Assembly: GCF_017348835.2 (NCBI RefSeq)
Contig: NZ_CP071375.1
Strand: one strand, 5' to 3'
Source: Escherichia coli
GTDB taxonomy: Bacteria; Pseudomonadota; Gammaproteobacteria; Enterobacterales; Enterobacteriaceae
DNA: 64,000 bases
Within the stretch, counting starts at the first letter, position 1; each line of letters starts with the position of its first letter. The position numbers and the translations under genes are program-made. The notes beneath the pieces were generated by a model. It made no database searches. It saw nothing but the letters and a program-made list of their open reading frames with translations, and had not been told where the DNA came from. Positions 1 through 60,508 of this stretch are shown one piece after another.

Positions 1-32
1 GAGTAGTTAATGCCGTAGACCAGAATTTTCAT
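1..32 (-). CDS. wcaI: Colanic acid glycosyltransferase WcaI, 5' end only (runs off window start)
   Basis: Minus-strand ATG at 30-32 overlapping the gmm stop (ATGA); encoded [10 protein letters not shown] matches the remembered WcaI N-terminus; only about 11 codons are in the window. Confidence 0.5.
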
Positions 33-508
33 AATCCGGGTACTCCGGCACGCTTCTCAGCGAGAAAATAGGCGCGGCTGTTAGCGTGAACATTGTCACT
101 GGCGAGCAGTGCATCCGGCGTCAGCCAGCGGTAATCGTCATGCTGCTCATCCGGCAGTAACAGTTCTTCTTCCGCTACTCTGAAGCGAAAACCGAGCACC
201 ACATAGTGAGTGGTGAAATCCGTGCCAGAGAAGTTATCGTCATAAAAGTGCTGCCAGACACCGTAAAACTGGCCTGCTGTTATCGGCAGACGCAGCCCCA
301 GTTCCGCCATCGTCAGCCGCTCAAATGCGGCTTCCAGCGTTTCGTCTTTCTGCACGCGCCCTCCCGGCACAAACCAGTAACCCTGCGCCGGGCGGTTGGT
401 TCTTTTGCCAAGCAGAAACTCGCCGCGACTGTTCTCGACAATAAAGTCGAGAGAGACAAGCGGAGTGGAGCGCACTACCGTGGCAAAGTCTTCCTGACGT
501 AAAAACAT
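29..508 (-). CDS. gmm: GDP-mannose mannosyl hydrolase (NUDIX)
   Basis: ORF 29..511 translation (M)[26 protein letters not shown]... matches Gmm/WcaH; position between wcaI and fcl; start taken at the second ATG (159 aa) from memory of K-12. Confidence 0.85.
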
Positions 509-510
509 CA

Positions 511-1476
511 TTACCCCCGAAAGCGGTCTTGATTCTCAAGGAACCACTGGTAAGTGCTGGCAAGCCCCGCTTCCAGTGAGATTTCGTGATACCAGCCAAG
601 CTGATGCAGGCGCGTCACATCCAGCAGTTTGCGCGGCGTACCATCCGGTTTGCTGGCATCAAAAACCACCCGACCTTTGTAACCCACCACTTTGGCGATG
701 GTTTGCGCTAGCTCGCGGATAGTGCAGTCAACGCCCGTGCCGACGTTAATGTGTGACAGCATCGGCTGGGTGTTTTCCAGCCAGACTTCGTGCGCCAGCT
801 CCATCACATGAATGCTCGCCGCCGCCATATCATCGACGTGCAGAAATTCACGCATCGGTGTACCACTGCCCCACACCACCACGTCCGGCGCATTCTGTGC
901 CGTCGCCTCGTGGAAGCGACGCAGCAATGCTGGGATCACATGCGAATTACTCGGGTGGAAGTTGTCATGCGGCCCGTACAGGTTGGTCGGCATGACAGAG
1001 CGGTAATCGCGTCCATACTGGCGGTTGTAAGATTCGCACAGTTTGATCCCGGCGATTTTGGCAATGGCGTAAGGCTCGTTGGTCGGCTCCAGCGTGCCCT
1101 GCAATAACTCGCTTTCTGCCATCGGCTGTTTTGCCAGTTTCGGGTAGATGCAGGACGATCCAAGAAACAGCAGTTTGTTCACGTCGTTCTGATGCGCGGC
1201 GTGAATGATGTTGCTCTCAATCATCATGTTCTGGTAGATGAAATCCGCCGGATAGGTGTTGTTGGCAACAATGCCGCCCACTTTCGCCGCCGCCAGATAG
1301 ACCTGGTCAATACGTTCGCTGGCAAAGAAATCATGCACGGCGCGGCTGTCCAGCAGGTTCAGCTCGTCGCGGGTGCGTAATACCAGTTCCACATCACCGC
1401 GCTGTTCGAGCTGCCGCCTGATGGCAGAACCGACCATCCCGCGATGGCCAGCGATAAAAATGCGTTGTCTACTCAT
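511..1476 (-). CDS. fcl: GDP-L-fucose synthase
   Basis: 321-aa [24 protein letters not shown]..., NAD(P)-binding Rossmann motif, epimerase/reductase; conserved position downstream of gmd. Confidence 0.92.
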
Positions 1477-1478
1477 GC

Positions 1479-2600
1479 TTATGACTCCAGCGCGATCGCC
1501 ACGTCGTAGCCGTGAGATTTCAGCAGAGAGTGTTTTTTCGCCGCTTCGAGGTCATTAGCCACCATTTCAGACACCATCTCTCTGAGGGTGATTTCCGGTT
1601 TCCAGCCCAGTTTTTCGTGCGCTTTGGTCGGGTCGCCGAGCAGCGTTTCAACTTCTGCCGGACGGAAGTAACGCGGGTCAACGGCGATAATCACATCACC
1701 CGGTTTAACGCCCGGCGCGTCATGCCCGGTGACGGAAACCACAATGCCCTTCTCTTCAACACCCGTGCCTTCAAAGCGCAGTTTGATGCCCAGCTGTGCT
1801 GCCGCCATTTCCACGAACTGACGTACGGAGTACTGAACGCCGGTAGCAATAACGAAATCTTCCGGCTGTTCCTGTTGCAGCATCATCCACTGCATTTTGA
1901 CGTAGTCTTTGGCATGGCCCCAGTCACGCAGGGAATCCATATTGCCGAGGTACAGGCACGACTCCAGCCCCTGGGCGATGTTGGCGATTGCGCGGGTGAT
2001 TTTGCGGGTAACGAAGGTTTCGCCGCGGCGCGGGGATTCATGGTTGAAGAGAATACCGTTACAAGCGTACATGCCATAGGATTCGCGGTAGTTAACGGTG
2101 ATCCAGTAGGCGTACAGTTTGGCGACCGCATACGGAGATCGCGGGTAGAACGGCGTGGTTTCTTTCTGCGGAATTTCCTGCACCAGACCGTACAGTTCAG
2201 AGGTGGAAGCCTGATAGAAACGGGTTTTCTTTTCCAGACCGAGGAAGCGGATCGCCTCCAGCAGGCGCAGCGTACCCATCGCGTCGACGTCAGCGGTATA
2301 TTCCGGTGACTCAAAAGAAACCGCAACGTGGCTCATTGCGCCCAGGTTGTACACTTCATCCGGCTGCACTTCACGCAAAATGCGCGTCAGGTTGGAGGTA
2401 TCACTCAGGTCGCCATAATGCAGATGGAATTTCGGGTTGCAGGTGTGCGGATCCTGATAAATGTGATCCACGCGCTCGGTGTTGAATGACGATGCACGAC
2501 GCTTAATACCATGCACCTCGTAACCTTTTTCCAGCAGAAACTCTGCCAGGTAAGAACCGTCTTGTCCGGTTACACCGGTGATGAGAGCGACTTTTGACAT
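1479..2600 (-). CDS. gmd: GDP-mannose 4,6-dehydratase
   Basis: 373-aa [34 protein letters not shown]...; classic Gmd N-terminus and SDR fold. Confidence 0.93.
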
Positions 2601-2626
2601 GTCTTATTCCTCTGTATTTTTTGAAT

Positions 2627-3175
2627 TTATTCAGTTTCAACGCGTTCGCGTATCACCACTGCGGGATTCCCCCGGCAAACCACATTTGCCGGAAGCGATT
2701 TAAAAACACTGCTTCGTGCACCCACGACGGTGCCGTCGCCAATCGTGACGCCAGGGGCAACAAAAACATCTGTCGCCAGCCAGCATTTCTCGCCAATCAC
2801 AATAGGCGTGGCGTTAATGGTGAAATGTTGACTTGCATGGTCGTGGCTCCCGGTGCATAAATAACTTTTTTGCGATATCACCGAATGTGCGCCAATGGTT
2901 ATTTCACCGAGGGTATATAAATTGACGTCATCGCCGACCCACGCGTAATCACCTAAGGTTAATTTCCACGGATAGGTAATTTTTACTGACGGCCGAATAA
3001 CTACGTTTTTTCCTATTTTTGCGCCGAATAAACGTAATAAAAATGCCCGCCAGCGATACAATACTTGTGGCGACCAGGCAAATAATGTTGCCTGTACTGC
3101 CCACCACAATTGCACTTTAATAGCGTTGCCACCCCGGAACCCTTTCGGCACCGAGAAACCGCTTAAATCCTGCAT
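2627..3175 (-). CDS. wcaF: Colanic acid biosynthesis acetyltransferase (hexapeptide-repeat)
   Basis: 182-aa ORF with left-handed beta-helix hexapeptide repeats; synteny in the wca cluster. Confidence 0.85.
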   Translation of the reverse strand: MQDLSGFSVPKGFRGGNAIKVQLWWAVQATLFAWSPQVLYRWRAFLLRLFGAKIGKNVVIRPSVKITYPWKLTLGDYAWVGDDVNLYTLGEITIGAHSVISQKSYLCTGSHDHASQHFTINATPIVIGEKCWLATDVFVAPGVTIGDGTVVGARSSVFKSLPANVVCRGNPAVVIRERVETE

Positions 3176-3190
3176 CGTTTTCCCTTATAT

Positions 3191-3937
3191 TCAGCTTTTG
3201 TTATATAAGGCTTTCGTCTTTGAGGTAGTACGCTGGCGTAAATGCCAGGATAATTCTGCCCAGAAGCCAGGCACATGTAATATTTGCCGTTGGACTTTTT
3301 TGGCGTCAGCACACAATTCCATATTATTGGTGGTTGATACCCCACCCATGGAAAACTCAGACACCAGGCCATTGAGTTTTTTAAATGCATAACCGGCTTT
3401 ATACATTTTAGCCGCCAGCGCGTAATCGGAAGAAACTTTATATTCCAGGTCATAACGCCATTTTTTCAAACCGGATACCGGGAAAAATATCGCCTGATGA
3501 CTGGCGGGCAGGCTGTGATAAATATACCAACCCGGTTTGGCGCTACGTTTAATTTTATGCCCGTCGCCAAAATCCAGCAGCGCATCGCCGGTGATCATCA
3601 CGTTATCTTTTTGCATTTTTAACTTACGGACAAAATTTGCGGCATCCTGATGAAAAATATCGCCCGAGTTGAGAAACAACGCGAACTTGCCTTGTGCCAT
3701 CGCAATGCCTTTGTTCATGGCGTCGTAGATACCGTTATCTGGCTCGCTGACAAAGCGTAGGTTATAGATACCATTGAGATTTTCCAGATACTCACGGGTA
3801 CCGTCGTTGGAACCGCCATCGACAACAATCCATTCGAAGCTGATATCGTCCGCCTGCGCCAGATGCGCCAGCGAGGCATGTGTTTTGACTATTCCTTCGA
3901 GGTTACGAAACGCGACAGTGATTATGCTAAGCAACAT
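3191..3937 (-). CDS. wcaE: Colanic acid biosynthesis glycosyltransferase (GT2)
   Basis: 248-aa ORF, GT2-like (DxD-type) motifs; synteny. Confidence 0.85.
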
Positions 3938-58733: not shown

Positions 58734-59006
58734 TTATTTGATATATGAATCCAGCACCTTCAGAACGACATCCAGATCTTCTTCACGTTTTAGCTCATCC
58801 CCCTGGTGAACGATGTGTTCAGTTAGATGACCTTTAATCACTTCCCGCATCAGACCGTTTACCGCGCCACGGATAGCAGCAATCTGTTGTAAAACTGCAG
58901 CGCATTCGTGCGGCTCGTCGAGCATTTTCTTGAGCGCCACGACCTGGCCCTGAATCTTACTGGCACGTGCTTTCAGTTTCTGTTTATCACGGATTGTATG
59001 AGACAT
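58734..59006 (-). CDS. rcnR: Ni(II)/Co(II)-responsive repressor RcnR (CsoR/RcnR family)
   Basis: 90-aa [51 protein letters not shown]…. Confidence 0.93.
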
Positions 59007-59054: not shown

Positions 59055-59089
59055 TACTGGGGGGTAGTATCAGGTACTGGGGGGGAGTA
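59055..59089. promoter_or_regulatory. Two RcnR operator sites (TACT-G6/7-AGTA) in the rcnR-rcnA divergent promoter region
   Basis: tactggggggtagta (59055-59069) and tactgggggggagta (59075-59089), inverted TACT/AGTA half-sites around G-tracts. Confidence 0.8.
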
Positions 59090-59126: not shown

Positions 59127-59951
59127 ATGACCGAATTTACAACTCTTCTTCAGCAAGGAAACGCCTGGTTCTTCATCCCCAGCGCCATCTTACTTGGTGC
59201 GCTTCATGGCCTGGAACCAGGGCACTCAAAAACGATGATGGCGGCGTTTATCATCGCCATCAAAGGCACCATTAAACAGGCGGTGATGCTCGGACTGGCA
59301 GCAACCATTTCGCATACCGCAGTGGTCTGGTTGATTGCCTTTGGCGGGATGGTGATCAGCAAGCGCTTTACTGCTCAATCAGCAGAACCGTGGCTCCAGT
59401 TGATTTCCGCAGTGATCATTATTGGCACCGCGTTCTGGATGTTCTGGCGTACCTGGCGCGGCGAACGCAACTGGCTGGAGAATATGCACGAGCATGATCA
59501 TGAGCATCATCACCACGATCACGAAGATCACCACGACCAAGGACATCATCACCATCACGAACATGGCGAGTATCAGGATGCCCATGCACGAGCCCATGCC
59601 AATGACATTAAACGACGCTTTGATGGTAGAGAGGTCACCAACTGGCAAATTTTGCTATTTGGCTTAACCGGTGGCCTTATCCCCTGCCCGGCAGCAATTA
59701 CCGTGCTGTTGATTTGCATTCAGTTGAAAGCCCTGACACTGGGCGCAACACTGGTCGTCAGTTTCAGCATTGGCCTGGCGTTAACGCTTGTCACCGTAGG
59801 CGTTGGCGCAGCAATCAGCGTTCAGCAGGTCGCAAAACGCTGGAGCGGATTTAACACTCTCGCTAAACGCGCCCCCTATTTTTCCAGTCTGTTGATTGGC
59901 TTAGTTGGTGTGTATATGGGCGTACATGGCTTCATGGGCATAATGCGATAA
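59127..59951 (+). CDS. rcnA: Nickel/cobalt efflux permease RcnA
   Basis: 274-aa ORF with His-rich cytoplasmic loop (HEHDHEHHHHDHEDHHDQGHHHHHEHGEYQDAHARAH) between transmembrane blocks. Confidence 0.93.
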   Translation: MTEFTTLLQQGNAWFFIPSAILLGALHGLEPGHSKTMMAAFIIAIKGTIKQAVMLGLAATISHTAVVWLIAFGGMVISKRFTAQSAEPWLQLISAVIIIGTAFWMFWRTWRGERNWLENMHEHDHEHHHHDHEDHHDQGHHHHHEHGEYQDAHARAHANDIKRRFDGREVTNWQILLFGLTGGLIPCPAAITVLLICIQLKALTLGATLVVSFSIGLALTLVTVGVGAAISVQQVAKRWSGFNTLAKRAPYFSSLLIGLVGVYMGVHGFMGIMR

Positions 59952-60169: not shown

Positions 60170-60508
60170 ATGACCATTCAAAATAAGATGTTGCTGGGTG
60201 TGCTTTTGCTAGTTACCAGTGCCGCCTGGGCCGCACCAGCCACCGCGGGTTCGACCAATACCTCGGGAATTTCTAAGTATGAGTTAAGCAGTTTCATTGC
60301 TGACTTTAAGCATTTCAAACCAGGCGATACCGTCCCAGAGATGTACCGCACCGATGAGTACAACATTAAGCAGTGGCAGTTACGTAACCTGCCCGCACCT
60401 GATGCCGGGACGCACTGGACCTATATGGGTGGCGCGTACGTGTTGATCAGCGACACCGACGGTAAAATCATTAAAGCCTACGACGGTGAGATTTTTTATC
60501 ATCGCTAA
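60170..60508 (+). CDS. rcnB: Periplasmic Ni/Co homeostasis protein RcnB (YohN)
   Basis: ORF track 172 aa; ATG at 60170 gives the 112-aa product MTIQNKMLLGVLLLVTSAAWAAP… with signal peptide. Confidence 0.85.
   Translation: MTIQNKMLLGVLLLVTSAAWAAPATAGSTNTSGISKYELSSFIADFKHFKPGDTVPEMYRTDEYNIKQWQLRNLPAPDAGTHWTYMGGAYVLISDTDGKIIKAYDGEIFYHR

Follow-up and report, generated by a model that had tools for sequence, protein, structure and literature searches.

A length-variable histidine-rich codon tract in Escherichia coli rcnA lies at the site of the MLVA locus TR7

The window analysed here, a stretch of 64,000 nucleotides of Escherichia coli DNA, carries the gene rcnA together with rcnR and rcnB (Table 1). 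The rcnA reading frame matched the Pfam family PF03824 NicO at 6.1e-70 (236 bits, cut-off 27.7, residues 13-273) and, over residues 1-274, the NCBIfam model NF007454 (PRK10019, 'nickel/cobalt efflux transporter') at 3e-168 (558 bits, cut-off 195). The window gene shares 100% identity with its counterpart in E. coli strain PE164, and rcnA is the annotation in every matching RefSeq genome. Its product is 98% identical to RcnA of K-12, from which we predict that it exports Ni(II) and Co(II). The sequence-only reading of the window had called the gene RcnA, and the full-length NicO/PRK10019 match, the position between rcnR and rcnB and the RefSeq annotation all bear this out; the characters of the family found in the window gene are the NicO profile, the context of rcnR with its operators and of rcnB, and a central His-rich loop. 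The two intergenic sites conform to TACT-G6-N-AGTA, the operator motif of RcnR (PMC7055735); they contain G6 and G7 runs and are identical in 12 of the 13 fetched loci. In the O157 strain SS17 the second operator is one G shorter, through either a sequencing error in the homopolymer or genuine variation of the operator.

Table 1. Positions of genes, operator sites, repeats, nested reading frames and typing-primer sites at the rcnA locus of the window
Feature	Position	Strand	Description
rcnR, Ni/Co-responsive repressor	58734..59006	-	NCBIfam NF011613 RcnR equivalog, 4e-59; upstream of rcnA, divergent
Two RcnR operator sites, TACT-G6-N-AGTA	59055-59069 and 59075-59089	n/a	rcnR-rcnA intergenic; read from sequence
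rcnA CDS	59127..59951	+	274 aa + stop; predicted Ni(II)/Co(II) efflux protein, NicO family
Nested antisense ORF	59379..59648	-	89 aa, TTG start; M/V/I-rich product
TR7 forward primer site	59408..59426	+	1 mismatch, at the Ser/Gly100 codon
Nested +1-frame ORF	59422..59667	+	81 aa, TTG start; I/T/M-rich product
His/Asp/Glu-rich loop codons	59487..59570	+	residues H121-E148; 16 His, 4 Asp, 5 Glu of 28
11-nt perfect direct repeat CATCATCACCA, copy 1	59505..59515	+	
Imperfect tandem array	59508..59564	+	Tandem Repeats Finder: period 18, consensus CATCACCACGATCACGAA, 3.2 copies, 74% matches
11-nt direct repeat CATCATCACCA, copy 2	59544..59554	+	39 nt downstream of copy 1
TR7 reverse primer site	59750..59769	-	0 mismatches
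rcnB, periplasmic accessory protein	60170..60508	+	Pfam PF11776 RcnB, 7.7e-19; RefSeq annotation in fetched loci; downstream of rcnA

Translation of positions 59487-59573 in the rcnA frame gives HEHDHEHHHHDHEDHHDQGHHHHHEHGEY, the peptide that had already been read from the sequence alone, and codons 121-148 (59487-59570) give HEHDHEHHHHDHEDHHDQGHHHHHEHGE, followed by Y149. By class, these 28 codons comprise 16 CAY, four GAY, five GAR, one CAA and two GGN (CAC 8, CAT 8, GAG 3, GAT 3, GAA 2, GAC 1, CAA 1, GGA 1, GGC 1). Over all six frames of the 64-kb window the next best stretch of 28 residues contains 9 His against the 16 of the tract, so its composition is not due to chance. The span first proposed for it, 59490-59600, does contain the tract, but the limits had to be redrawn to 59487-59570 for the part truly rich in H, D and E, since the proposed start was one codon late and the proposed end lay 30 nt beyond the tract, in QDAHARAHAN. 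The wording 'low-complexity' or 'cryptically repetitive' is accurate, as Tandem Repeats Finder detected only an imperfect array; the label 'perfect simple-sequence repeat' was rejected as wrong for this allele, with its 74% matches. Flanking the loop, a 10-nt perfect direct repeat, ATGCACGAGC, occurs at 59484-59493 and 59584-59593, exactly 100 nt apart; a deletion between these copies would be out of frame, and no such allele was seen.

Two spurious reading frames over the tract had also been pointed out in the sequence-only reading, and both are present (Table 1). The Pfam search returned nothing above noise for the antisense ORF (best E 0.07, below the cut-off) and no family for the +1-frame ORF, and neither is annotated in the 13 fetched RefSeq loci. 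The antisense frame stays open because the antisense of CAY and GAY codons is stop-free (ATG/GTG/ATC), and the +1 product is rich in I, T and M because the shifted frame reads ATC/ACC/ATG. Both nested ORFs are a side effect of the tract's codons.

We searched rcnA by megablast against 5,426 complete E. coli genomes and obtained matches in 5,365. In an evenly spaced sample of 60 of these matches the gene spans 825 bp in 51; the other spans are 789, 822, 834, 846, 852, 858 and 882 bp, and in two matches the gene is truncated or deleted. A second systematic sample, in which loop lengths were taken from the record spans, had an 84-nt loop in 35 of 40 rows. About 86% of the complete genomes, including K-12, ST131, NU14 and ATCC 8739, share the 28-residue loop length of the window, about 6% are of the O157 type (325 genomes of O157:H7 and relatives), and the remainder is assorted. 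In strain ZF31 (NZ_CP047455.1) rcnA is deleted save for its first 111 nt, next to yehA, and 61 of the 5,426 complete genomes have no rcnA match at all.

The loop had been expected to differ in length between strains, and it is clearly not invariant in E. coli: the 159 proteins at the E. coli/Shigella level that have both anchors contain 59 distinct loop sequences of 15-54 residues with 8-32 His, and in complete genomes the gene measures 789-882 bp. Between ENM and YQDAH there are 16, 27, 28, 31, 36, 37, 39 or 47 residues, with 8-25 His, in nine aligned DNA alleles whose proteins differ outside the loop by at most two residues; the loops of the DNA alleles are 45-141 nt long, and the flanks are at most 4% divergent, with nearly all differences synonymous. 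Among members of three 90% clusters, full-length RcnA has 261, 262, 263, 267, 268, 273, 274, 277 or 281 aa; the best 120 homologous proteins listed were all E. coli variants and were used for polymorphism only. Contig counts were 722 for the 261-aa allele, 401 for the 262-aa allele, at least 1000 for the 281-aa allele and 155 for the exact protein of the window. However, the 261-aa allele was absent from the 40-row sample of complete genomes, so it is rare among these, though common on contigs of the wider collection.

Sequence variation is likewise concentrated in the loop, where 45 of 50 columns vary in an alignment of 37 alleles against 31 of 246 columns outside. The loops of the window and of K-12 have the same 28 aa, with E122, H125, D134 and Q138 in the window versus G, Y, H and H in K-12; the five nucleotide differences in this loop include one synonymous and four non-synonymous changes, against a synonymous to non-synonymous ratio outside the loop of 7:1 in the same comparison and of 27:1 between the window and O157. 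One length is nevertheless common across divergent lineages and length is therefore not free to drift everywhere; the shared 84-nt length may be under stabilising selection, or imperfect repeats may simply slip at a low rate.

How the lengths arose can be followed in the repeats themselves. Lengths differ by multiples of three in every case, and the reading frame is intact in all 14 DNA alleles. Removal of 59505-59543 from the window allele (39 nt, one copy of CATCATCACCA plus a 28-nt spacer) yields a loop identical to that of the natural 261-aa allele (L014 / P0018). The 36-nt deletion that leads from the K-12 loop to the 262-aa allele of NCCP12480 has 12 equivalent placements, which indicates that 11-nt repeats (ATCACGAACAT) bound it. 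In strain 7CC, 9 nt have been inserted as a tandem duplication of CATCATCAY, and visible internal duplications of HDHEHH-type blocks occur in the longer alleles JNQH498, P0074, P0107 and P0120; three larger alleles (JNQH498, P0074, P0120) look like duplications of a unit of about 18 nt, with multiples of 6 aa. In-frame indels bounded by short direct repeats are the footprints expected of slipped-strand misalignment, which would explain these alleles. Slippage had been proposed for the tract from the outset, and the in-frame indels at direct repeats, together with a true hexanucleotide VNTR in the O157 class, support that proposal. Because the repeats of the window are imperfect and about 86% of genomes share its length, slippage in its allele class is occasional, not rapid; rapid slippage is a property of the perfect arrays of the O157 and Salmonella types at the rcnA loop.

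In the O157 class the loop DNA is a perfect (GACCAC)n array, encoding Asp-His, for which Tandem Repeats Finder reported a period of 6 and 15.2 copies. Copy numbers read directly from the sequence were n = 2 in 2018-05-2CC, 4 in Sakai, 5 in JNEC-KY204 and Res13-Lact, 6 in strain 108, 7 in SS17 and SS52 and 11 in 08-3918. Sixty of the 325 O157-type genomes were sampled systematically; in these, n ranged from 2 to 11 with a mode of 6 (genomes per n: 2:1, 4:7, 5:6, 6:25, 7:12, 8:5, 9:2, 10:1, 11:1), values that were partly inferred from alignment end-points calibrated on just six fetched loci. Three O157-type proteins had no exact match in the protein collection, and the frequency of the type was taken from the DNA searches. 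In one series of cattle isolates, with genomes within about 100 bp of each other in size, strains 118 and 132 have n = 7 and strain 130 has n = 4, suggesting, if the isolates are assumed to be related, that the copy number of GACCAC changes on very short time-scales.

Three O157-type loci stood out in other respects. The rcnA of strain Res13-Lact-ER02-39 is a mosaic of window-like flanks (9 differences in 741 positions) and an O157-type loop, (GACCAC)5 with a DNEE tail, and its Met120 is replaced by Ile. It suggests that intragenic recombination moves loop types between backgrounds, and some of the length differences between classes could stem from recombination rather than from slippage. In strain 2018-05-2CC an IS1A transposase gene starts 36 nt past rcnA, at the usual place of rcnB; the RcnA of this strain also carries T2I and the shortest GACCAC array. 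Strain NJS001 (NZ_CP114132.1) has an O157-type rcnA (n = 8) on a record of 438,722 bp classed as a plasmid; this record may be a contig of the chromosome under a wrong label, or else a secondary replicon of very large size.

The GACCAC array is a known typing locus. Among the seven O157 MLVA loci of the Noller et al. 2003 scheme, Table 2 of PMC2246123 describes TR7, with the repeat GACCAC, the primers CGCAGTGATCATTATTAGC / TGCTGAAACTGACGACCAGT and a Simpson diversity of 71.3%; the locus is treated there, as in the typing literature, as an anonymous marker, and the gene is not named in that paper. Both primers are exact in O157 Sakai, and in the window they bracket the tract (Table 1), so the tract is the TR7 site. 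TR7 probably corresponds to O157-19 or VNTR-19 of the Keys and PulseNet schemes. The tract in the window and TR7 of the O157 type share the genomic site, GACCAC encodes Asp-His of the RcnA loop, and the copy number varies, whereas the window allele has neither the perfect GACCAC array nor the DNEE tail and its forward primer site differs by one position. The characters of a VNTR that the window site does show are the position of the published locus and length variation between conserved flanks. It contains no tandem GACCAC and thus no perfect head-to-tail array of the kind that defines a VNTR locus; the window allele is a degenerate, low-copy state of the locus and not an active microsatellite.

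A second typing locus occurs in the orthologous gene of Salmonella. STTR5, with the unit CACGAC, lies within yohM (PMC1781188), has been placed 'between two domains of YohM' and commonly has alleles of 8-14 units; its authors speculated that extreme lengths harm Ni/Co resistance (PMC5183578), and mid-range alleles predominate in Salmonella according to the abstract of the same paper. The gene yohM is rcnA; STTR5 and the E. coli tract occupy the same position, CACGAC is GACCAC rotated, and both are used for MLVA. However, STTR5 consists of long perfect arrays, whereas most E. coli, the window included, have a short imperfect version. A further candidate, the generic E. coli MLVA locus CVN014, which ranges from 2 to 11 units within ST131 (PMC3407997), was dropped as a name for rcnA, the sampled ST131 genomes all having the standard 825-bp gene.

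The place of the loop in the protein was examined with an AlphaFold2 model of RcnA built from 47 sequences (mean pLDDT 79, pTM 0.70). The membrane core is helical (pLDDT 85-93), and the helices 83-120 and 152-165 flank a coil at 121-151, with pLDDT below 50 at 135-150 and 152-154; a low-confidence coil between long helices means that the loop is predicted to be disordered. Clusters of K and R on either side of it (WRTWRGER..., ...DIKRRFDGRE) point, by the positive-inside rule, to a cytoplasmic position; only this clustering was used, as the hydropathy scan was too coarse for topology. A DeepTMHMM prediction for a RcnA homologue agrees with a cytoplasmic loop (PMC11247825). A PDB sequence search revealed no solved structure of the NicO family, its sequence matches being noise from the His tract only, and Foldseek with the RcnA model gave no significant PDB match, with ZIP and YiiP at noise level (E ~1-6).

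Beyond E. coli the loop keeps its composition but not its sequence. We compared 45 homologues, each representing a separate 50%-identity cluster and each with an anchor identifiable on either side of the loop; the corresponding segment measures 13-249 aa with a median His fraction of 0.28, and 42 of the 45 have at least 5 His there; the motifs are unrelated and include poly-His, (HD)n, (HG)n and (HP)n. As composition is conserved without sequence or length, the loop would act as a putative cloud of metal ligands, and its most plausible role is to capture Ni(II)/Co(II) from the cytoplasm for the transport pathway, or to regulate that pathway. Some authors have suggested storage or chelation as the role of the loop (PMC11445613, PMC11247825). 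The sequence-only reading had also proposed that loop length may influence metal specificity or capacity; no experimental test of the RcnA loop or of its length was found in the literature searched.

Comparable loops have been described. The His-rich region of the K-12 gene, reported by Rodrigue et al. 2005 as quoted in PMC11445613 and PMC11247825, belongs to the same protein and has the same loop and length as in the window, with four residues different. RcnA loops of cable bacteria reach 100-123 aa with 33-53 His (PMC11247825), and HD-rich insertions in RcnA of Klebsiella pneumoniae were reported as putative resistance mutations (PMC11445613). As in E. coli, these loops vary in length and keep their His/Asp/Glu composition; however, they represent between-species expansions or putative resistance mutations, whereas the variation in E. 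coli is an ordinary polymorphism within a species. Disordered, His-rich, cytoplasmic loops between helices are also known from transporters of unrelated folds and families, namely the IL2 loops of CDF/ZnT proteins and the loops of ZIP proteins, which are thought to bind metal and to modulate transport or selectivity.

Eight homologues (P0164, P0166, P0168, P0172, P0174, P0181, P0187 and P0195), of 354-387 aa and up to 73% identical to the window protein, have an insert of about 100 residues in the loop. Its motif, IDTGHG...E(L/I)S(I/V)FE.G.PP.(W/F)RL...PEPH.F, is conserved, and the insert looks like a folded domain inside the His-rich loop.

Taken together, we consider it very likely that the tract is best explained as a cytoplasmic loop of RcnA, constrained in composition, whose length is changed by slippage and which putatively binds Ni/Co. 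The tract would encode a disordered loop that joins membrane helices three and four of the RcnR-regulated RcnA and faces the cytoplasm, and the property required of it would be composition, i.e., many His with Asp and Glu as ligands (soft-metal ligands), not an exact sequence or length. If composition is the requirement, the DNA will consist of nearly nothing but CAY, GAY and GAR codons and will be rich in short direct repeats. Replication slippage, or misalignment between such repeats, may then sometimes add or remove whole codons, and, because frameshifted products would be lost, in-frame length variants would build up in the population. In the O157:H7 class, GACCAC (Asp-His) would have expanded to a perfect hexanucleotide microsatellite, whose copy number changes fast enough for outbreak typing (TR7), while the window has an allele of the common 28-residue class with imperfect repeats, a comparatively stable one. 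The loop itself would most likely bind cytoplasmic Ni/Co and hand the metal to the transport pathway or regulate that pathway.

The first alternative, which we regard as unlikely, is that loop length, and with it the number of His ligands, has been selected in each lineage to adjust the capacity of Ni/Co efflux, the preference for metals or their buffering; the O157 microsatellite would then be an evolved 'tuning knob'. Indels never break the frame, and loops of every length retain their His/Asp/Glu composition, as such selection might predict, yet purifying selection against frameshifts equally predicts that only in-frame variation is seen. The His-rich character is conserved throughout the family, an importance of length has been the subject of published speculation (PMC5183578, PMC11445613, PMC11247825), and the dominance of mid-range STTR5 alleles in Salmonella could be read in the same way; against this, cattle O157 genomes of nearly identical size have n = 4, 6 or 7, which resembles neutral VNTR drift, and a single length predominates across ecologically diverse strains.

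It is also rather improbable that the loop is a dispensable spacer, its richness in His being a historical or mutational accident of the repeat. A three-fold range of lengths is tolerated within one species, non-synonymous changes in the loop are frequent, the loop is predicted to be disordered, and 3 of the 45 homologues have few His at its position; however, His enrichment in the other 42, which are distant and have unrelated motifs, argues for selection on composition, and even the shortest E. coli loops, of 15-16 residues, retain 8-9 His. A phase-variable (contingency) switch, in which slippage would toggle rcnA by frameshift, is extremely unlikely, for although the repeat tract lies in a CDS and its copy number is demonstrably unstable, its units of 6, 9 and 18 nt are all multiples of three, at odds with what defines a contingency locus, the 14 DNA alleles are intact without exception, and gene lengths in complete genomes differ from 825 bp by multiples of three. 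We give hardly any credence to assembly or sequencing errors in a low-complexity region as the source of the length differences: repeats are error-prone in some technologies, and the operator homopolymer of SS17 may be such an error, but individual alleles were found again and again on independent contigs (722, 401 and at least 1000), the variation is present in closed genomes, and MLVA studies sized the fragments independently by PCR (PMC2246123).

The composition-constrained, slippage-prone loop is thus a feature that is real, was correctly read, is ordinary and, apart from the functional consequence of its length, is already known; MLVA has drawn on its length polymorphism for two decades, as TR7 in O157:H7 and STTR5 in Salmonella. 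As it stands the finding matters little, the loop being a textbook-style low-complexity, putatively metal-binding one. Annotation pipelines should allow for E. coli RcnA proteins of 261 to about 300 aa and leave the nested ORFs out. There is a small chance that selection can act on loop length as a 'rheostat' of Ni/Co efflux or buffering and that the Asp-His microsatellite of O157:H7 and Salmonella evolved for rapid and reversible adjustment of ligand number in changing metal regimes of the gut or the environment; if so, a routine typing marker would be a functional evolvability device. Because the MLVA marker lies inside a metal-efflux protein it need not be neutral, which users of MLVA may not realise, and, if loop length alters the handling of Ni/Co, the extensive MLVA data already available could be reinterpreted as a record of a functional trait.
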